IMG/VR virus record: IMGVR_UViG_3300037424_000314
Location: 1-51,507 of that record
Direction: 5' to 3' (one strand)
From: a virus
Length of the DNA: 51,507 nucleotides
Shown: one piece after another, positions 1,202 to 48,715 of the stretch
Numbering within the stretch: the first letter of the stretch is position 1
Layout of the letters: every line of letters begins with the position of its first letter
The notes under the pieces: generated by a model
The model's input: the letters and a program-made list of their open reading frames with translations, nothing else
Databases searched by the model: none
What the model was told of the DNA's origin: nothing
Position numbers and translations under genes: made by a program

Positions 1202-1693
1202 TTACCTCCCGCCACGTCTGAAAGTGATCCGTGACTTCATGTATGCCTCCACCCCATCAGGCAAAGGCCTCGCCTCTTCAAGAAGTTCTTTGCACATGGC
1301 CTTAAGGGTGGAATGATGCATGGTCAATGCGTCGTGGAATCCATTGGCCTCAATCCATTCCATGAACGCCGGCTTGTTTGCCACGGTGGGATAACACGAA
1401 CCTCGTAAGGAGAGGTGGTGCCCTGCGGCGGTCTTAAGGGCGGTCAGGTCAGAGGACTCCATGAGATCAACTAGGTTATCCTCAATGGAACCCAGGCGTT
1501 CGTTGACATCCTTTAACTGCTTTTCAAGATCTTCCTTCTTGATACGTTCTACTGAAAACCTCTCGGCGAGTTGGGCAATGGTGACTGGTTTAGGTCCCGT
1601 CATGATTTTTGACGAGGTCAAAGAACTCGGCTGCTGGGTCTCTGTACCCTTGCCGCCTTGAGGCGCTTTTTGTTTCGCGCTGTTCATAGGCAT
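1202..1693 (-). CDS. Hypothetical coiled-coil protein; alternative start at 1603 gives 133 aa
   Basis: 163-aa ORF with a predicted coiled-coil segment (IKKEDLEKQLKDVNERLGSIEDNLVDLM). The first ~30 codons overlap the 3' end of ORF 1590..1910 in another frame, so the ATG at 1603 (MTGPKPV...) is an equally plausible start. Confidence 0.55.
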   Translation of the reverse strand: MPMNSAKQKAPQGGKGTETQQPSSLTSSKIMTGPKPVTIAQLAERFSVERIKKEDLEKQLKDVNERLGSIEDNLVDLMESSDLTALKTAAGHHLSLRGSCYPTVANKPAFMEWIEANGFHDALTMHHSTLKAMCKELLEEARPLPDGVEAYMKSRITFRRGGR

Positions 1694-40931: not shown

Positions 40932-41312
40932 TCAATCGATGATCCGGTCATCATCAGCGGGGTAGGGTCCAGTACCCAGTTTGGAGAACTGGTCAGTTAC
41001 AGTTCCTGGGGCATCCTTGATCTTACTGTAGATCTCAGTTTGGTCAAGGATGATGAACTCGACCTCCCCCGTCGATTTATCTGCCCGTGGGTGGGTCCGG
41101 TCAATCACGGTGAAGACGATCCCTGACAGACGTGTGAACAACACCCTCTCCCCTGGCTCAAACCCTCGCACGTCCGGGCCAACCGCCAGGATCTTACCGA
41201 CGGTTGTCTTGGACTTGGCCACGTCAGGGATGACCAGGCCTGCCTCTGACTTATAGACGAACGCGTCCCTGGCCACGATCATCTTGGTCCATACTGGTTC
41301 TAGTCGTTTCAT
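40932..41312 (-). CDS. GroES/Cpn10-like co-chaperonin
   Basis: 126 aa. LEPVWTKMIVARD...EAGLVIPDVAKSKTTVGKILAVGPDV...FEPGERVLFTRLSG...EFIILDQTEIYSKI follows the Cpn10 pattern (L-x-P-x-x-[DN]-[RK]-[VIL]-[LIV]-V...GI-x-IP...G-x-V-x-AVG...GD-x-V-x-[FY]...IL-x-x-x-DI-x-A). Confidence 0.6.
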   Translation of the reverse strand: MKRLEPVWTKMIVARDAFVYKSEAGLVIPDVAKSKTTVGKILAVGPDVRGFEPGERVLFTRLSGIVFTVIDRTHPRADKSTGEVEFIILDQTEIYSKIKDAPGTVTDQFSKLGTGPYPADDDRIID

Positions 41313-41644
41313 TCGTCAACCACCTCCCTGAATCGCCCGGTGGACGCCGCATCGTCAGCGGCCAGGTAATAGTCCCAGTCGGTTGCCAGCAGGTCCGTTT
41401 GACTTGGCAACCACGGGACAAAGGTCGGGACCGGGTCTGCCGTCTTCATCATGACATACGGTGAGAACACGCACACCGTGCCCTGGGGTATCCCAGTAGC
41501 TTGGGCCGTGTTCGAGTTGATGGGGATCCCCTCAGGATACCCCTTTTGAAGGGTGATGTACATGTCCCTTCCATTCCAGCCGCTACGCTGGACCTTGTGG
41601 CCGTTGCGCAGCTGGATGAGCGTCCACTCAAACCCACGTTTCAT
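41309..41644 (-). CDS. DUF2829-family protein (Tad2-like, candidate Thoeris anti-defence sponge)
   Basis: 111 aa. FEWTLIQLRNGHKVQRSGWNGRDMYITLQ...PWLPSQTDLLATDWDYY matches the DUF2829 hallmarks (G-[KH]-[KR]-V-x-R-x-GWNG...[IL]-x-LQ...W-x-[PA]-SQ-x-D-[LM]-LA-x-DW). ATGA overlaps on both sides. Confidence 0.75.
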   Translation of the reverse strand: MKRGFEWTLIQLRNGHKVQRSGWNGRDMYITLQKGYPEGIPINSNTAQATGIPQGTVCVFSPYVMMKTADPVPTFVPWLPSQTDLLATDWDYYLAADDAASTGRFREVVDE

Positions 41645-42075
41645 AACATTCCCCTTAGTTGATCCATGTCAAATAGTTTACCCGGGCATGACTTGTACGG
41701 TGCGTAGTCCCGGTGAGCTCGCACGTTCCTTGCAGGAATATTGAACCATGACATCCACGGGCGTAGTACCCGATTGATGAGGGCCACCAGCATGTCACGT
41801 TCAGGAGGGTACCAGTCATAGTTACCGACGCAGCAAACATGGAGGGCCTTACCATTCATGTCCTGTTCCTTCACGGCAGCGGCCCGCTGAGATATGTCGC
41901 GCCCTAACAAGGCGTAGTACTCTTTACCGATCAGCTCAACACCGGCATGGTAACCAATGTCAAGCCAACCATTAGAGATCCTATGATAGTTCTCAATTGC
42001 CTTCCAACTTACCGTCTCCCCGTCCTTCGTCAGGCTGTGGTGTATCACAATGTGTGTCCGTGTTAGGTTGCTCAA
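41641..42075 (-). CDS. N-acetylmuramoyl-L-alanine amidase (T7-lysozyme/PGRP-type endolysin)
   Basis: 144 aa. THIVIHHS, DIGYHAGV and YKSCPG motifs of the Amidase_2 fold. The TTG start at 42075 is preceded by AGAGGAGGAAG with 6-nt spacing. Confidence 0.9.
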   Translation of the reverse strand: MSNLTRTHIVIHHSLTKDGETVSWKAIENYHRISNGWLDIGYHAGVELIGKEYYALLGRDISQRAAAVKEQDMNGKALHVCCVGNYDWYPPERDMLVALINRVLRPWMSWFNIPARNVRAHRDYAPYKSCPGKLFDMDQLRGML

Positions 42076-42777: not shown

Positions 42778-43125
42778 CTATAGTCCGGTGAAGTCTGGTG
42801 GAACCCAGTCTGGTCCTTTTAGGAGCTTACCGTGGCCGGTGTCCTGACCCTTGGTCATGTTCGACGTGTGCACACGATCCATTGCCTCATCCGCATCGAA
42901 CCCGTACAGGCACGCCGCACCGTAGCAGACGTACAACAGGTCCGCCACCGCGTCAATCACCGCCTCACGATCATGCTCCTGCATCCCAATGATCAGCTCG
43001 GTGGCCTCCTCAAGAATCAGACGCGCGCGCACGAAGCGCGTGTCCACGTGGTTATGATCAAGTGACAGGTCATACTTTAACATGAACTCTGCCACCTTTA
43101 CCTGATTCGGTCCTATGCTATACAT
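42778..43125 (-). CDS. MazG-like all-alpha nucleoside triphosphate pyrophosphohydrolase
   Basis: 115 aa. RARLILEEATELIIGM...AVIDAVADLLYVCYGAACLYGFDADEAMDRVHTSNMTK shows the E-x-x-E...D-x-x-D metal-binding helix pattern of MazG/HisE-type NTP-PPases. Confidence 0.7.
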   Translation of the reverse strand: MYSIGPNQVKVAEFMLKYDLSLDHNHVDTRFVRARLILEEATELIIGMQEHDREAVIDAVADLLYVCYGAACLYGFDADEAMDRVHTSNMTKGQDTGHGKLLKGPDWVPPDFTGL

Positions 43126-43491: not shown

Positions 43492-45239
43492 GCGGCTAAC
43501 CTCCATGAGTCGCCCTTCTTAACCTTCCAAATGATGGGTACCCTTAATTCCATCTCCTGTTCGTTGAACACCTCCTCTATCTTCTTGATGTCGGCATCTG
43601 GGTGCACCGTGCCGTCCACCTCATCATGCACCGTCATCTGCATCTTAAACCCTAGGTTCTTCATCACTGAGTAAATCTTAACGATCTTAAGCTTCATTAG
43701 ATCAGCCGCCGTGCCCTGGATCATAGCATTCAGCGCGCTGTGCAAACGATCCCGAAGTGGGTAACGACGTCTTCGTCCCAATAGTGTCTTAGCAAAACCC
43801 CGTCGTTTTACGATTTTGATGACATCCCACATAAGTCGTGATGCCTCTGGAAACATCGCTTCATACTCTTTGTTGATCTCTTCGCCACGTTCCAGGGTAC
43901 AACCAAGCTGAGCACACACCTTGTCTATGCCCATGCCATAGATCTTCCCGAAGTTCCAATTCTTTGCCGATTTCCTGACCCATCCTATCAGCTTGGCTAC
44001 CTCCTCATGAAAGTCGCAGTCAGGATCATCGACATACGCCTTAATCAAGCGAGCGCTACGGCTGTAATGCGCAAAGATTCTGAATTCTATCTGACTCGCG
44101 TCGGCGGAGAGCCAGTAACCACCATCAGGGATAAAGAGCTCACGGATGATCCACTGTCTGGTGGACTCATCTTGCCGCTCCTCCGAGAAGACCTGCTGAA
44201 TGTTGACGCTCGAGCTCGAGTACCGTCCGGTGATGGTGCCATACTCGTTGCCGCGCAGCTGGTTTAGGTTGTAGTACAACCGGCCGTTGACCTGCTCACG
44301 CCAGTATTTATCGAGATACTTAGAGCACAGGCTGCTGATCTGCCGCGCCGCCAGTGCCATGCCAATGACGCGGGATTGTTTCTCAGTTGAGGCCCCCATC
44401 ATTAACAGGAGCGATTGCTCCGTGTATGAGTCCTCTCCACCGGCGGTAAACATTGGGACTGAAAGTCCCATCACCCTGAATAATTTATTCAGGCTAGTTG
44501 CCTTGTTGGGGCTAACCTGGAATCCTACCGCGTTTGAGATTTGTGTGCATAACCAAGCGTGTTTCTGTTTTGCCTCGACGCGCCAGCGCGCCAGCTTTGG
44601 CATGTCAAGCCGGGCGCCTTGGCGCTCCATGAACAGGGTTGGGTAGGCGCAGGCATCTTCAAGGTTTGCGACCTCAATTAACTCCTCTGCCCGGATAAGT
44701 GGTCGGGCATGCTCGTACAGTTCATAGGTTAGTCGGGCATCGTTAGTACAGTATGGACCTACCTCCCATGCAGGCATCACATTGATCGGCATCCTTGATG
44801 GCATGACCTTCTTGCGTTTCTTCAAGAAGTCAAAGGCCAAGGACTCTAGATCGAACTTACGTCGCTGCTCATTGAGCAGGGCATAGTAGTACTGAACACA
44901 TCTAGGTTTACACCCTAACTGTTCGAGATCAACCCCAACCTTTAACATCATCGAGATGTCAAAGCTCGGATTGACCAATGCGACCTCCTTACCCTTGAGG
45001 TTGTCGTTTGCCCAACGCGAGACAGCACCAGGGTCCATGTTACCACCGCCCTGGTGACCCCACCCAAAGTAATACTCCAAGCCAGGAGCATAGACACCGA
45101 AGCCGACGGGCTTGTCGTGGCCGCGCCAGTTCAAACCCGTGGTCTCAGTATCCAGACCGATGCACTTGACGCCGGCTAGGTTGGGTGGCTCCATCTTCAC
45201 CCTCGGCGTATTTACCGTGAAGTCAAGTTTGGCCTGCAT
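43488..45239 (-). CDS. Family-A DNA polymerase with a 3'-5' exonuclease domain
   Basis: 583 aa. Exo I GLDTETTGL, Pol motif A LSADASQIEFRIFAHYS, motif B RKSAKNWNFGKIYGMG, motif C MTVHDEVDG. Confidence 0.92.
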   Translation of the reverse strand: MQAKLDFTVNTPRVKMEPPNLAGVKCIGLDTETTGLNWRGHDKPVGFGVYAPGLEYYFGWGHQGGGNMDPGAVSRWANDNLKGKEVALVNPSFDISMMLKVGVDLEQLGCKPRCVQYYYALLNEQRRKFDLESLAFDFLKKRKKVMPSRMPINVMPAWEVGPYCTNDARLTYELYEHARPLIRAEELIEVANLEDACAYPTLFMERQGARLDMPKLARWRVEAKQKHAWLCTQISNAVGFQVSPNKATSLNKLFRVMGLSVPMFTAGGEDSYTEQSLLLMMGASTEKQSRVIGMALAARQISSLCSKYLDKYWREQVNGRLYYNLNQLRGNEYGTITGRYSSSSVNIQQVFSEERQDESTRQWIIRELFIPDGGYWLSADASQIEFRIFAHYSRSARLIKAYVDDPDCDFHEEVAKLIGWVRKSAKNWNFGKIYGMGIDKVCAQLGCTLERGEEINKEYEAMFPEASRLMWDVIKIVKRRGFAKTLLGRRRRYPLRDRLHSALNAMIQGTAADLMKLKIVKIYSVMKNLGFKMQMTVHDEVDGTVHPDADIKKIEEVFNEQEMELRVPIIWKVKKGDSWRLAA

Positions 45240-46114
45240 TATTGATCCGTCAGCAGGAGATTAAAGGCTTCCTTACGCGGGTGCGTAAGTACCTTAGCAA
45301 AGGTAAACCATGGCTGTGGGAAATCAACGGTCTTACCTCGATCATTGAGAATGACTTGACCATCATTAATCGGTAACGATGGGGCATTGAAGATGGCAGC
45401 AAGCTCTGGTGGAGGAGGAGAGAACATACGGTCACTGCCATAACATGAGATGTCTTGCAGGCCACTGCACATCTCACCAAGCCTGTCTAGGTCTCTCTCA
45501 TACATGTGGGCTGAGCCGAGGTTGAACTGTAAGAAACCTGGTAAGCAACCAAGATGAAAGCAAAGAAGGTTCATGATTTGGGAGAATACATAAAAGTCAT
45601 AGGGCAAACCAAGGAAGATGTCCGAGCTTCGCATGGTGACGATCGTGTTCAGGAAGTCTTCACGTCGAATGAACTGGACGTTCAGGGTACACATGACGTC
45701 CTTGGTCGGCATCCATGGGGTTTCCCAGATACCGGCCACCGCCTGCCTCGTCTGAGGGTCCTCCTTTAGCTTCCCAAGCACATATGGGAGTGCCACCTGA
45801 AGTCTCGGCCCGTACGCGCCCCACATCTTCATACCGTCATCAGAGAATTCGACGATTCGTTTGTTGTAATTTCCTATGGACGGTGCGTCGTCGTAACCAA
45901 AGAGGATCCACAGAAACTCCGCAACCATAAACCTGTAGTTCAAGTCGCGGGTGGGATGGTACAGGATATTGTGCATAGGTTCATTCACGCGAAAGGATGA
46001 TCCAAGAATCTCTCGCGTTGGGATGCCACGTGGGCCGGCTGGCGTGCCGTCATAAATGATTTGGCTGGCAAGACCACGATATGCCGCGTTAAAGTAACCG
46101 CAATTGAGATGCAT
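45239..46114 (-). CDS. Thymidylate-synthase-fold pyrimidine C5-transferase with the dCMP-specifying Asp (dCMP hydroxymethylase/methylase-like)
   Basis: 291 aa from the ATG at 46114; the ORF extends to 46165. Motifs AEFLWIL, YGPRLQ, TRQAVAGIW, nucleophile VMCTLNVQFIRRE, MRSSDIFLGLPYD (Asp codon GAC at 45596-45598, where TS has Asn) and LGSAHMY. TAATG overlap with the polymerase gene. Confidence 0.8.
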   Translation of the reverse strand: MHLNCGYFNAAYRGLASQIIYDGTPAGPRGIPTREILGSSFRVNEPMHNILYHPTRDLNYRFMVAEFLWILFGYDDAPSIGNYNKRIVEFSDDGMKMWGAYGPRLQVALPYVLGKLKEDPQTRQAVAGIWETPWMPTKDVMCTLNVQFIRREDFLNTIVTMRSSDIFLGLPYDFYVFSQIMNLLCFHLGCLPGFLQFNLGSAHMYERDLDRLGEMCSGLQDISCYGSDRMFSPPPPELAAIFNAPSLPINDGQVILNDRGKTVDFPQPWFTFAKVLTHPRKEAFNLLLTDQ

Positions 46115-47027
46115 GGTTGTGCTCCATAGCCTGTTTGAATAGTTTAAGGTATTCCGTGGCTTCATGATGTTTGAAGCGATGGTAGAACTGCGGGTGTGGC
46201 AAACAAGTACATGGGATATCTTGCTGTACTAGCATCTTAGCGGCCTGCTGCCCAAGTGCAAGGACCCGTTTAAGTTTCTTCAGGTCACCAATGATAGGCT
46301 TCATGATGCGTGGCGAACCATCCTTACGGTATGCGTTGGTCAGGTAGTAGTTGTGCCCGATCCCAAGACGCATCAGGGTATTGATCAGGTACGCACTTGA
46401 CCCAGCCGTGGAGAAGAATGGCAGGTCATACATCCGATGGTTGCTCATCTCCCCAACGATTAGGGTCTCAGACCAACTTGGCCCTATCCCAAGGTCAAAA
46501 GGAATCTGCGAGTCGCGCGCCGCGATGAACTCAATGCGCTTCCTTATTAAGTCCACGACCTCAGGGTCAAACGGGTCGATGACTTCCCATCCACTAAGCT
46601 TAAAGCTACGATCTTGGTACAATTCATAGATATGGACCAGTTCTTCCATCTTCTGGAGATATTCAGTCTCGCGTCGTTTCTTCCAGGTCTTAACAACTGC
46701 CTTAAGTGGCGCCGCGCAGATCAGACCAAAGCCATGGCTAAAGACGATATGGTCGATGATGTGCTGCCCAATCTCACCAAGATTGTCACGGTTACGTTTG
46801 ACTGGGCCATACGTGCGTTCACCCAGGTGAAGGCGGTCATGGATACAAAAGGGGTAGGTCAGGGCCTTCACGGCGTAGTGCTCAAATAATGATGGGGCAT
46901 CTGGTGGTAGGCCCTCATGCATGCGATTAACGTGCTTGGTGTTAAACGCACGCATAATGTACTCTTCGAGTTTATTAGCCAGTGTCGTTTTACCGGTGCA
47001 GTCACAACCTTCAAGAACAATCTGCAA
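46089..47027 (-). CDS. Fusion protein: thymidylate-kinase-like P-loop dNMP kinase (N-terminal) + family-4-like uracil-DNA-glycosylase-fold domain (C-terminal)
   Basis: 312 aa. The TTG start at 47027 follows GGGAGGTG. N-terminal domain: IVLEGCDCTGKTT (P-loop) and IHDRLHLGERTYG (DR motif). C-terminal domain from ~aa 170: TLIVGEMSNH...LPFFSTAGSSAYLINTLMRLGI...YYLTNAYRK...VLALGQQAA...CLPHPQFY, which tracks UDG family-4 motifs (IVGE-x-PG, PF-x-G-x-AG, Y-x-TN, LG, HPS). Confidence 0.75.
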   Translation of the reverse strand: MQIVLEGCDCTGKTTLANKLEEYIMRAFNTKHVNRMHEGLPPDAPSLFEHYAVKALTYPFCIHDRLHLGERTYGPVKRNRDNLGEIGQHIIDHIVFSHGFGLICAAPLKAVVKTWKKRRETEYLQKMEELVHIYELYQDRSFKLSGWEVIDPFDPEVVDLIRKRIEFIAARDSQIPFDLGIGPSWSETLIVGEMSNHRMYDLPFFSTAGSSAYLINTLMRLGIGHNYYLTNAYRKDGSPRIMKPIIGDLKKLKRVLALGQQAAKMLVQQDIPCTCLPHPQFYHRFKHHEATEYLKLFKQAMEHNHASQLRLL

Positions 47028-47757
47028 GGGTCACCTCCCAGAGGTTATTGCGCGAGTAGTCCGGGTACAGCGGGGCGAACATGACTGACATGACCTCCCC
47101 GCCATAATACTGCGCAAGATTTTCAAAGATGATGAGCTCATCAGGATTCATGGCCTTGGTGATCTCAGGCTTGCTGGCAAACGTGCCCCAACGCTTTTTA
47201 ACCTTAAGACCTGCCTCCTCAATAAGGTCATTCAACTCCTCTGCAGTATACTCATGGATGTGGTTGACTGCCGCGGCGCCATTAAATATGGGCGTTGATA
47301 GATAAAGGGTAGAACGCTGGTCCATGAGTGATTTGATGTTGGTCAACAGGGTAAGACCATCCTCAGTCTCCATGTGTTCAATCACCTCAAAGCAGGTGAT
47401 CGTATCATAGGGCCCACGCAGCTCAACGAAGTCTGCGATGAAGTCAAACTCCCACCAGATAGATGCCCATGACGGGCAGATGGATCCCTCAGGTTGTTTG
47501 TTTAAATCAATGCCATTGTACTCGGTAGGGATAAGGCTTTTGTTCCCCATCAGGACACGGAGTAACGGCTGATCTTGCCCGCAACCTACATCAAGGATCC
47601 TCTTCCCATAGGCACGGTTCTTATTAATGAACCCCCATCGGAAGAAGTGGGCCGCATAGTCACGGTGTACGTTGTACCCGTAATGTGCGGCCTTAAGCTG
47701 GGTCTTGTCAAACCGACGCGCTGGACGCGTACGACCTGACCTAGTCGGTTGGGGCAT
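47011..47757 (-). CDS. Class-I SAM-dependent methyltransferase (not a recognisable DNA MTase)
   Basis: 248 aa from the ATG at 47757, 7 nt after AAGGAGG. Motif I RILDVGCGQDQPL, post-I GIDLN, YDTITCFEVIEHM. No DPPY/NPPY or PCQ motifs. Confidence 0.8.
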   Translation of the reverse strand: MPQPTRSGRTRPARRFDKTQLKAAHYGYNVHRDYAAHFFRWGFINKNRAYGKRILDVGCGQDQPLLRVLMGNKSLIPTEYNGIDLNKQPEGSICPSWASIWWEFDFIADFVELRGPYDTITCFEVIEHMETEDGLTLLTNIKSLMDQRSTLYLSTPIFNGAAAVNHIHEYTAEELNDLIEEAGLKVKKRWGTFASKPEITKAMNPDELIIFENLAQYYGGEVMSVMFAPLYPDYSRNNLWEVTLADCS

Positions 47758-48343
47758 CAAGGACCTCCTTATCTCGGTGGAGAACAATGTAGTATCTGAC
47801 GATGCGCTCAGGTTCTTGACGAGTGGTTAACTTCCCACCCTTGACCACATCTGCAGTAAGTTCGGCGATGGTTGCAGGACCCAGGCGTTTCAACGAGTCG
47901 AACACCACACCCCGTTGACCGCCACCGGTCTTGGTACCTTCCTTCAAGATGTATCTCTTCTGCAGAACGTCTGAGGTCTTCTTGTTGGGCTGGATGTAGC
48001 TGTCAGGCATCTCCCCAGTCTTAAGAAAGATCTTGAATCTCTCTACCCGCTTATCGTGTCGGTCCTTGATCTTCTGGTCAACCGCATTGAAGTAGTGTTG
48101 CAGCCATGTAAGCTGTACGAAGCTGGCAACGACAGGCACGTAAATTTCAGATGGGCAGGTGAGTGGCATTTCAAGGTCGTGGTGTATGAGAAACCGTTGG
48201 GCGGATGATGCACTGAGCAGCTTCAATTTCGCAACCGTGACGGAGATCCCACGAGCACTAATGAGAAGCTCGTAGGATCCCTTCACGTAGTAAAGATCCC
48301 CGTCCTTCTCACGAAGGACGGGTTCAATAGGTTGATTTTTCAT
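47741..48343 (-). CDS. Two-domain protein: novel N-terminal domain + winged-helix-like module (paralogue B)
   Basis: 200 aa. Residues 142-196 (GQRGVVFDSLKRLGPATIAELTADVVKGGKLTTRQEPERIVRYYIVLHRDKEVLDA) align with genes 10694..11095 and 48365..48715. Confidence 0.65.
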   Translation of the reverse strand: MKNQPIEPVLREKDGDLYYVKGSYELLISARGISVTVAKLKLLSASSAQRFLIHHDLEMPLTCPSEIYVPVVASFVQLTWLQHYFNAVDQKIKDRHDKRVERFKIFLKTGEMPDSYIQPNKKTSDVLQKRYILKEGTKTGGGQRGVVFDSLKRLGPATIAELTADVVKGGKLTTRQEPERIVRYYIVLHRDKEVLDAPTD

Positions 48344-48364: not shown

Positions 48365-48715
48365 TTAGGCTGCCTTGACTGCCTCGACGGTGCCGGCCTT
48401 CTTCATGCTGGTCATGTAGAAACTGACCACCGACTTCGCGGATTGTTTCGTCTGCAGCTTTCCCTCGATCTCTTTTGTGATCTCGTCGATCGTGGCCTCT
48501 CCCTTCTTCTTCAGGGCATTGACGATCAGCTCGACCTGGCCACCTGTCTTGAACTTTACCTCCTTGGTGGTGAGTTTGAACTTCGTGGCGACCTTGGGCT
48601 CCTTGGCTTCCTTTGCCCCCTTCTTTCCTGCAGCAGCGTCAACATCGGTCTCAGCTGCCTTCTTGCTGACCTTCTCCGCAGGTGCTGCGGCTGCCTTGCT
48701 TTGTTTCTTTGCCAT
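48365..48715 (-). CDS. Histone-H1-like small basic protein: Lys/Ala-rich tail + winged-helix-like module (paralogue C)
   Basis: 116 aa, SD AAAGGAGAG. N-terminal tail MAKKQSKAAAAPAEKVSKKAAETDVDAAAGKKGAKEAKEPK. Module GQVELIVNALKKKGEATIDEITKEIEGKLQTKQSAKSVVSFYMTSMKKAGTVEAV. Confidence 0.7.
   Translation of the reverse strand: MAKKQSKAAAAPAEKVSKKAAETDVDAAAGKKGAKEAKEPKVATKFKLTTKEVKFKTGGQVELIVNALKKKGEATIDEITKEIEGKLQTKQSAKSVVSFYMTSMKKAGTVEAVKAA

Follow-up and report, generated by a model that had tools for sequence, protein, structure and literature searches.

What is gained by joining a nucleotide kinase to a uracil-DNA glycosylase (UDG) fold within one viral protein? The question is raised by an open reading frame (ORF) in IMG/VR virus record IMGVR_UViG_3300037424_000314, of which positions 1 to 51,507 were analyzed (this whole stretch of 51,507 nucleotides, an entire metagenomic contig, is hereafter called the window). 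The ORF, referred to here as kinase::UDG, lies at 46089–47027 on the minus strand; it begins with TTG, ends with a TAA stop codon at 46089–46091 and encodes 312 amino acids (aa). An original prediction, made from the letters alone and giving no strand, had read it as an uninterrupted fusion of a thymidylate kinase (TMPK)-like P-loop domain to a domain with the motif order of family-4 UDGs, a degenerate catalytic motif (GEMSN) and no cysteine pairs for an iron-sulfur (Fe-S) cluster. On the basis of family profiles, structure models and gene context, we propose, at a probability of roughly 0.45, that kinase::UDG is a bifunctional enzyme belonging to a module for cytosine replacement in phages, combining a 5-hydroxymethyl-dCMP (5-hm-dCMP) kinase with a uracil-type DNA glycosylase.

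One reading frame encodes both domains

The TTG start codon was preceded about 6 nt upstream by GGGAGGTGAccc, a strong Shine-Dalgarno sequence and ribosome-binding site (RBS); as read from the sequence, this element (GGAGGTGA) occupies 47031–47038 of the minus strand. Eleven relatives of the window protein, 309–315 aa in length and 58–66% identical to it, were collinear with it, and the kinase and UDG matches shared one stop-free ORF in 39 independent loci. Hence, the ORF is not an artefact of a frameshift or of sequencing. At its start, the ORF shares 17 nt with the 3' end of the methyltransferase gene that lies upstream. Downstream, the likely start of a thymidylate synthase (TS) homolog is the ATG at 46114, which has a GGAG RBS, agrees with the N-termini of its homologs and overlaps the 3' end of kinase::UDG by 26 nt. 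These overlaps are consistent with translational coupling.

In the translation, IVLEGCDCTGKTT was located at residues 3–15 and D64-R65 followed it; further on came TLIVGE (188–193), GEMSN (192–196), PFFSTAG (203–209), YLTN (228–231), ALG (257–259) and HPQF (278–281). A linker at residues 169–181 (46485–46523, minus strand) separates the two domains and contains the block of lowest predicted local distance difference test (pLDDT) score, about 80 at residues 171–180. Searches with the window protein alone were nearly blank: Pfam gave a sub-threshold AAA_28 match and no UDG match, the PDB gave chance matches to myosin only, NCBIfam gave nothing useful, and PHROGs gave phrog_761 'thymidylate kinase' (1.8e-6). 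Profiles of the family were therefore needed.

The N-terminal half resembles YorR and thymidylate kinases

A search of 1.84 billion cluster representatives with a 21-member family profile (A1, 306 positions) yielded 961 clusters with E ≤ 1e-30. From these, the best 150 were taken, one representative for each 50%-identity cluster, and aligned; all conservation counts below refer to this alignment. All 150 were two-domain proteins of 279–356 aa, and 145 of them covered at least 277 of the 306 profile positions.

Residues 2–158 of the A1 profile matched YorR of the SPbeta prophage (2axp/3kb2, 3.8e-15) and then thymidylate kinases. The kinase domain (residues 1–168; 46524–47027, minus strand) was delimited by the profile, an AlphaFold2 model, Foldseek and a hidden Markov model (HMM) scan. 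Its P-loop, E6-G-C-D9-C-T-G12-K13-T14-T15 (46983–47012, minus strand), is of the TMPK type EGxDGxGK[ST]T, aligns through the family form EGxDGxGKTT with EGIDGSGKTT of Aquifex TMPK and is invariant in 148–149 of the 150 relatives. The DR motif region, D64-R65...E70...Y73-G74...R78 (46794–46838, minus strand), was equally well kept: D64, R65, Y73 and R78 were present in 150/150 and E70 in 145/150. H37 (145/150), Y51 (147/150) and a basic residue at position 118 were conserved as well.

The AlphaFold2 model built on A1 had a mean pLDDT of 91.1 and a predicted template modelling score (pTM) of 0.88. When this model was compared with the PDB by Foldseek, its N-terminal half retrieved YorR (E = 3.7e-6, TMt 0.72–0.75), many TMPKs and deoxynucleoside kinases. 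An independent BFVD model (A0A5Q2W7A6) superposed on it over the full length (TMq 0.77, TMt 0.84). Thus this half is predicted to fold as a TMPK/YorR kinase; it resembles YorR in both sequence and structure, and it carries the TMPK signature (the P-loop and DR(Y/F/H)) together with the fold of nucleoside monophosphate kinases. The window protein nevertheless stayed below the curated TMPK thresholds, with 11.6 bits against 27 for Pfam PF02223 and 16 against 83.25 for TIGR00041, and the kinase half is accordingly not filed as a thymidylate kinase here.

TMPK structures have established that the acceptor deoxynucleoside monophosphate (dNMP) is held through its free 3'-OH by the Asp of the P-loop. 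Judged from family knowledge, the Arg-rich acceptor site of the kinase half would likewise be typical for phosphate acceptors and not for hydroxyl acceptors.

The C-terminal half is a UDG-fold domain with a conserved pocket

Residues 173–278 of A1 matched family-4 UDGs and UdgX. With a profile restricted to the C-terminal domain (A4), the family-4 UDG of Thermus (1ui0) was matched at 8e-6 and that of Thermotoga at 1e-4, and the alignment with 1ui0 paired the motifs one to one (VGE, PF, (T)N, LG..A and HP....R). Foldseek retrieved UdgX 6iod (4.6e-5) and Thermotoga maritima UDG 1l9g with this half of the model. Pfam PF03167 (UDG) matched 9 of the 21 profile members, at best with 2.4e-9; the window protein itself was unmatched. 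The domain comprises residues 182–312 (46092–46484, minus strand), and its core is about 30 residues shorter than that of 1ui0 (query 10–113 versus 1ui0 30–161).

The residues that form a UDG pocket were present in order. Motif A, TLIVGEMSN (46440–46466, minus strand), has G192 in 148/150 and an acidic residue at position 193 in 147/150 (E in 102, D in 45). The segment PFFSTAGSSAYL (46386–46421, minus strand) contains the stacking Phe204, which is F in 142 and W in 7 of the relatives, and a Ser-Ser loop (S210, 131/150; S211, 136/150). In YLTNA (46332–46346, minus strand), Asn231 (149/150) is aligned to the uracil-recognising Asn of Thermus UDG (ITNIVKC). Motif B, HPQFYHRF (46173–46196, minus strand), keeps H278 in 148, P279 in 150, and R284 and F285 in 149 relatives each. 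D201 (134/150) and G259 (149/150) were also conserved. The fold and the ordered set of motif A, stacking Phe, pocket Asn and motif B place this half in the UDG superfamily.

Across the family, motif A reads G(E/D)xx(N/S/G/A), compared with GE[AG]PG in family 4; only the 'PG' part varies. N196 of the window GEMSN was found in just 100/150, and some members still read GEAPGG. Judged from the alignment, GEMSN is a variant of GE[AG]PG that retains its sole acidic residue. No conserved set of cysteines for an Fe-S cluster was seen in the C-terminal domain of the 150 relatives, in which two Cys columns were partly conserved (50/150 and 65/150). Hence, family 4 appears to have given rise to a new clade of minimal UDGs without the Fe-S cluster, to which this half would belong.

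The architecture read originally from the letters thus withstood the profile and structure searches: the frame is unbroken (11 collinear relatives, 39 single-frame loci), the TMPK-like P-loop and DR motif are real (YorR at 3.8e-15, TMPK matches, D64-R65), the UDG fold with family-4 motif order was recovered by both 1ui0 (8e-6) and the model (6iod, 1l9g), and the Fe-S cysteine pairs are indeed absent. The description of the catalytic motif as degenerate was overstated: the 'PG' is altered, but the acid is kept in 147/150 and the stacking Phe, the Asn and the His are kept as well.

Since motif A still has its acid, motif B its His, and the pocket both the stacking Phe and the Asn that reads the base, excision of a uracil-type base is the most likely activity of this half. 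Judged by these residues, an active glycosylase has, by our estimate, an even or slightly lower chance. The same features can be read differently. The protein might join a modified-dCMP kinase to a UDG-like domain that is silent, in the way of poxvirus D4/E4 or of the inactive UDG domain in N4-like polymerases, and that only binds DNA or the polymerase, thereby keeping the synthesis of nucleotides at the fork (substrate channelling). The lost Fe-S cluster, the shortened domain and the variable 'PG' agree with such a role. Furthermore, UDGs of phages and other viruses are known as parts of the replisome, and catalytic residues are missing from N4-like UDG domains (bioRxiv 10.1101/2025.03.26.645540). 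Two standalone members of the clade (L050 and L051, described below) have a neighboring gene that, judged by eye, resembles gp32. A silent tether, however, would not need the near-invariant pocket (E/D193, N231, H278 and F204, with the counts given above), and we consider it doubtful.

The fused gene is tied to an Asp177-type TS homolog

To place the gene in its context, 40 IMG/VR loci and the reference loci were surveyed, and all their ORFs were scanned with HMMs built for each protein of the module. A TS homolog adjoined the fused gene in 39/39 loci; among the 33 fused IMG/VR loci, it was downstream in 26 and upstream in 7. Within ±6 kb of the fused gene, a dCMP deaminase was found in 25/39, a methyltransferase in 16/39 and a MazG-like protein in 16/39.

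In the window, the TS homolog is encoded at 45239–46165 (likely start 46114) on the minus strand. All of the 43 kinase-linked TS homologs had Asp at the position of Asn177 of Escherichia coli TS, and the dUMP hydroxymethylase of M6, used as a control, had Asn. It is established that exchanging Asn177 for Asp turns the specificity from dUMP to dCMP. The best PDB match of the window TS homolog was the CMP hydroxymethylase MilA (4e-21), and true TS matched at about 1e-9. These sequence signatures suggest that the TS homolog is probably a dCMP hydroxymethylase.

Published data point in the same direction. In the MetaGPA study (PMC8670742), Asp177 TS homologs were found to be markers of modified cytosine in phage contigs, and enrichment was also seen for the domains PRA-PH, dCMP-deaminase, AAA_28 and Thymidylate_kin. 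Stenotrophomonas phage AXL3, a carrier of kinase::UDG, has DNA that resisted all 35 tested restriction enzymes with G/C in the site; only TasI (AATT) and Tru1I (TTAA) cut it (PMC7504290). In Bacillus phage G, a single gene (gp314) separates the gene of the fused protein gp315 from that of the alpha-glucosyltransferase gp313; an Asp177 TS homolog (gp319) and a dCMP deaminase are encoded nearby. An alpha-glucosyltransferase is a hallmark of 5-hydroxymethylcytosine (5-hmC) DNA in T4 biology. The position of gp315 one gene from gp313 thus suggests, by analogy, glucosylated 5-hmC in the DNA of phage G. Taken together, Asp177 in 43/43, the MetaGPA association, the likeness to MilA, the genes of phage G and the resistance of AXL3 DNA indicate a pathway of cytosine replacement, not of thymidine modification.

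These results also bear on the database label, by which kinase::UDG would be a plain dTMP kinase with an uninformative C-terminal extension. The label agrees with the TMPK-like P-loop and with the annotation in AXL3, Actinomycetia phage DSL-LC01 and phage G. Nevertheless, the protein fell short of the curated TMPK profiles as described above, its partner is of the Asp177 type in 43/43 loci, and the C-terminal part is a well-folded and conserved UDG domain. Furthermore, AXL3 also carries ThyX for dTMP synthesis (PMC7504290). We regard a plain dTMP kinase as very improbable; the context, with its Asp177-type partner, appears to argue against dTMP as the physiological substrate.

Each half also occurs alone

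Homologs of the kinase half alone were found in the slot of the fusion, directly upstream of the same TS homolog. In phage genome ct3Et533, a 187-aa kinase (hhalign 2e-13) is encoded between a nucleoside triphosphate (NTP) pyrophosphohydrolase and a 'pyrimidine hmase', and a methyltransferase of the same family as that of the window lies upstream (6e-35). Further kinase-only homologs are gp013 of Pelagibacter phage HTVC200P (157 aa, 1.3e-17) and a protein at locus L034.

UDG-only members of the same clade are standalone genes encoding 141–220 aa, with HPQYWKRF as motif B (L050, 5881–6384; L051, 5881–6384; L043, 5941–6366; L046, L047 and L052). At L043, the standalone UDG is 5 kb from the cluster of MazG, kinase and TS homolog, and the clade is thus supplied in trans. 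Some standalone members come from other phage contigs, on which neither a kinase nor a TS homolog lies within 6 kb. The existence of kinase-only and UDG-only forms suggests that each half is an autonomous module and that the fusion is one of several arrangements.

Two further observations concern the standalone genes. At L050 and at L051, the latter from a 360-kb contig, the neighbor that looks gp32-like by eye would be a single-stranded DNA-binding protein. A 'G:T/U glycosylase' of ct3Et533 (L011, 16211–16699) was considered as a member of the same clade acting in trans and was rejected (hhalign E = 0.16). This small UDG-superfamily-like protein, which has the motifs MQNPW ... HHPNAR, is encoded between primase and helicase genes.

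The occurrence of standalone members is relevant to the possibility that the UDG half has been retargeted to excise bases other than those of uracil type, such as unmodified cytosine or thymine from the DNA of the host or of a competitor. Such an enzyme would be a functional analogue of T4 EndoII/EndoIV, by which C-containing DNA is destroyed and the modified phage DNA is spared. The strict tie to cytosine-replacement modules and the replacement of GE[AG]PG by GExxN would suit it. Enzymes of the UDG superfamily can also acquire specificity for modified cytosines in evolution, and the defence glycosylases of one study are reportedly members of this superfamily. In UNG, mutation of the base-reading Asn to Asp yields cytosine specificity. 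In kinase::UDG, however, this residue is invariantly Asn and not Asp, and the clade members on contigs with neither kinase nor TS homolog within 6 kb also speak against a retargeted glycosylase, which we find quite improbable.

Proposed roles of the two halves

From the folds, the conservation, the synteny and the Asp177 association, we infer the substrate of each half, and that the UDG half is catalytically competent, as follows. The Asp177 TS homolog would convert dCMP to 5-hm-dCMP or, less likely, to the 5-methyl product, as its context and sequence signatures suggest. The kinase half would then phosphorylate free 5-hm-dCMP (less likely 5-methyl-dCMP) to the diphosphate, which would enter the triphosphate pool and be polymerized; this step would correspond to the role of gp1 in T4. 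The UDG half would most likely flip out and excise a uracil-type base from the phage DNA, either uracil after misincorporation of dUTP or 5-hydroxymethyluracil (5-hmU) arising from deaminated 5-hmC. Its task may be likened to that of the UDG domains on the polymerases of SPO1/SP-15-type phages. Fusion would co-express the synthesis of the modified pyrimidine and the removal of uracil-type bases, and possibly co-localize both at the replication fork, with the two domains working as separable modules and not as one composite active site. Of the two assignments, the kinase role taken by itself is probable.

Family-4 UDG domains that are fused to A-family polymerases in phages remove dU in front of the polymerase, and they provide a direct precedent for coupling uracil surveillance to the replication of modified pyrimidines (bioRxiv 10.1101/2025.03.26.645540). 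Several points weigh against our proposal. The need of a cytosine-modifying phage for its own UDG is not obvious. The window protein scores below every curated Pfam and NCBIfam threshold for both TMPK and UDG. The TS homolog might, though this is less likely, act as a methylase instead of a hydroxymethylase. With the Fe-S cluster and about 30 residues gone and the 'PG' unconserved, glycosylase activity could have been lost or retargeted. Finally, the confidently predicted packing of the two domains (pTM 0.88; BFVD match) would also fit a cooperative two-domain mechanism.

Such cooperation was at the heart of the original prediction, in which the UDG fold flips a 5-hydroxymethyl-pyrimidine out of polymeric DNA and the kinase half phosphorylates its hydroxymethyl group, as 5-HMUDK does. 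The product would prime further hypermodification, possibly with the Hen1-like methyltransferase encoded upstream. This idea draws on the conserved fusion and its confident inter-domain geometry (pTM 0.88; TMq 0.77, TMt 0.84 against BFVD), the extreme restriction resistance of AXL3 DNA and the hydroxyl-directed methyltransferase as a frequent neighbor. Thymidine hypermodification also offers a precedent, in that 5-HMUDK is partnered there with aGPT-Pplase, a protein of glycosylase fold (PMC8989533). Membership of kinase::UDG in the 5-HMUDK family was rejected, however, in a comparison with M6 gp54 alone (ViI gp67 and PhiW-14 gp37 were left aside): BLASTP aligned only residues 3–51 (E = 0.015), and hhalign aligned 21 columns, so that the similarity stops at the P-loop. 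Furthermore, the P-loop Asp of TMPK type and the DR motif are typical for dNMP acceptors, and in TMPK-type kinases it is the acceptor phosphate, not C5 of the base, that faces ATP. The kinase-only and UDG-only forms stand in equivalent contexts, ct3Et533 having the kinase alone together with the methyltransferase. In addition, the UDG pocket keeps a uracil-type Asn, yet the base of the pathway is cytosine-type (Asp177 in 43/43) and not 5-hmU. The idea of a kinase acting on DNA thus found no support and is unlikely. The second suggestion of the original prediction, in which phosphorylation in the nucleotide pool is coupled to keeping deaminated bases out, agrees better with these data.

A related form of cooperation, in which both domains work as one DNA machine, the UDG fold flipping 5-hmC or its deaminated form and the kinase derivatizing the hydroxymethyl group, possibly together with the Hen1-like hydroxyl methyltransferase, is in our view distinctly unlikely. 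If true, it would be the cytosine-side counterpart of the 5-HMUDK/aGPT-Pplase pathway of thymidine hypermodification and would produce a base so far undescribed, such as phosphomethyl- or methoxymethyl-cytosine.

Distribution of the fusion

Apart from the metagenomic clusters, full-length homologs of kinase::UDG were found in deposited genomes of Stenotrophomonas phage AXL3 (gp29), Pseudoxanthomonas phage PW916, Actinomycetia phage DSL-LC01 and a Manatee Spring siphovirus. Phage G gp315 was recognized as a member by its structure and by hhalign (2e-20, full length). Where annotated (AXL3, DSL-LC01 and phage G), the proteins are all labelled 'thymidylate kinase', an annotation that is probably wrong; the gene of PW916 was left unannotated in its record. 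As a separate observation on the phage G locus (L053, 1278–2660 and 3447–4442), motif A of gp315 reads VAQNPGG, of an Asn type, instead of GE.

When the window protein was compared by tblastn with 50,697 phage records, 10 records were matched, none of them T4-like. Two family peptide patterns were also scanned over 185,579 bacterial and archaeal genomes and gave no relative; hence, within the limits of those two patterns, the family looks exclusively viral.

Full-text literature searches gave no description of a kinase-UDG fusion, and searches on the function of YorR gave nothing relevant. The original prediction had known of no described kinase::UDG architecture. This remains true of the literature searched, but the architecture is common in databases and in cultured phages; it is thus common, viral and uncharacterized. 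By these searches, the architecture, the Fe-S-less UDG clade and their apparently strict coupling to an Asp177 TS homolog have no earlier description in the searchable literature. Both domains are of kinds already known, as are fusions of UDGs to replication enzymes.

We know of no enzyme that phosphorylates 5-hm-dCMP outside T4-like phages. The kinase::UDG family is a strong and widespread candidate for this missing kinase, and the cultured carriers AXL3, PW916, DSL-LC01 and Bacillus phage G make the predictions directly testable.

Neighboring genes and other features of the window

On the minus strand of the window, the genes are arranged in the order archaeo-eukaryotic-type (AEP) primase, UvrD-like helicase, small Lys-rich protein, 200-aa ORF, methyltransferase, kinase::UDG, TS homolog, PolA, 125-aa endonuclease-like ORF and MazG-like pyrophosphohydrolase. 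The order in AXL3 and PW916 is methyltransferase, NTP pyrophosphohydrolase, kinase::UDG, TS homolog and dCMP deaminase, and that in DSL-LC01 is kinase::UDG, TS homolog, dCMP deaminase and PolA. The dCMP-deaminase HMM had no match in the window, compared with the 25/39 fusion loci that have such a gene inside 6 kb.

The methyltransferase gene (47011–47787, minus strand) encodes a Hen1-like S-adenosylmethionine-dependent enzyme that is homologous to that of AXL3 (9e-53). A profile of this family matched Hen1 of Clostridium thermocellum (3jwi/3jwg, 2e-9) in the PDB, and then HENMT1, plant HEN1 and Anabaena Hen1. Its invariant residues are E134-x-x-E137-H138 ... H176, which we take to be the metal-binding motif of Hen1, and FEVIEH aligns exactly with IEVIEH of 3jwi. 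Hen1 enzymes methylate hydroxyl groups. O-methylation of 5-hmC is therefore a testable lead, and the sequence likeness suggests that the neighboring enzyme may carry it out; as it is co-conserved, AXL3-like phages may bear an additional modification of cytosine, perhaps a new one. Literature searches for methoxymethyl-cytosine as a phage base gave nothing relevant. ORFs of 308 and 317 aa upstream of the fusion at L006 and L007 were considered as methyltransferases and rejected; they were also unrelated to each other. The methyltransferase is thus a frequent but not an obligate partner.

The NTP pyrophosphohydrolase of MazG/PRA-PH type (42778–43125, minus strand) is homologous to gp30 of AXL3 (7e-9) and is a frequent member of the module; in the window it lies 3 kb from the fusion and is not adjacent to it. 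The 200-aa ORF (47741–48343) was considered as a homolog of AXL3 gp32 and rejected, as no homology was found. Between this ORF and the UvrD-like helicase gene, a 116-aa Lys/Ala-rich protein with no family match is encoded at 48365–48715 (minus strand); it might be a small DNA-binding or histone-like protein.

Elsewhere in the window, the ORF at 41309–41644 (minus strand) gave a strong match to the Pfam Tad2-like family (Thoeris anti-defence 2, 1.6e-21) and is flanked by a Cpn10-like ORF (40932–41312) and an Amidase_2 endolysin-like ORF (41641–42075). The ORFs at 78–866 and 1202–1693 (both minus strand) matched Pam3 gp34-like (5.5e-38) and Pam3 gp33-like (DUF7307, 9.6e-21), respectively. These Pam3-named families give a hint of the phage lineage.

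Comparison with known systems

YorR of the SPbeta prophage of Bacillus subtilis (2axp, 3kb2) is the closest solved structure to the kinase half and shares with it an EGPDxxxK P-loop and DR...Y, but it is a single-domain protein of 173 aa without a UDG domain. Thymidylate kinases (PF02223/TIGR00041) share the P-loop consensus, the DR motif, a basic LID-like segment and the fold. In contrast, kinase::UDG scores below their thresholds, has a partner that would make 5-substituted dCMP and not dTMP, and carries the additional UDG domain. The functional analogue is the dNMP kinase gp1 of T4, which acts in a pathway of dCTPase, dCMP-hydroxymethylase and kinase. The role that we propose to be shared is phosphorylation of 5-hm-dCMP; gp1 has no detected sequence similarity to the kinase half and no UDG domain.

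The 5-HMUDK systems resemble kinase::UDG in placing a P-loop kinase beside a glycosylase-fold protein in a phage pyrimidine-modification cluster. However, their clusters use a dUMP hydroxymethylase (M6 gp58, the one tested, has Asn177), whereas the partner of kinase::UDG is of the Asp177 type. The fold of aGPT-Pplase is helix-hairpin-helix and not that of UDG (PMC8989533), and none of this family was found among the Pfam matches of 24 other ORFs in two minus-strand gene blocks of the window.

The UDG half shares its fold, its motif order and the Glu, Phe, Asn, LG and HP..R residues with family-4 UDGs (1ui0, 1l9g) and UdgX (6iod), which differ in having 4Fe-4S cysteines, about 30 more residues and GE[AG]PG, and in not being fused to a kinase. 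This phage-specific, minimal and Fe-S-less clade, alone or fused, extends the known connection of uracil surveillance with phages whose pyrimidines are modified. The UDG fusions of phage A-family polymerases (SPO1-like and SP-15/YerA41-like), like kinase::UDG, have a UDG of family-4 type in phages of this kind. In those phages the partner of the UDG is a polymerase and thymidine is modified, whereas in kinase::UDG the partner is a putative dNMP kinase within a cytosine-type module.

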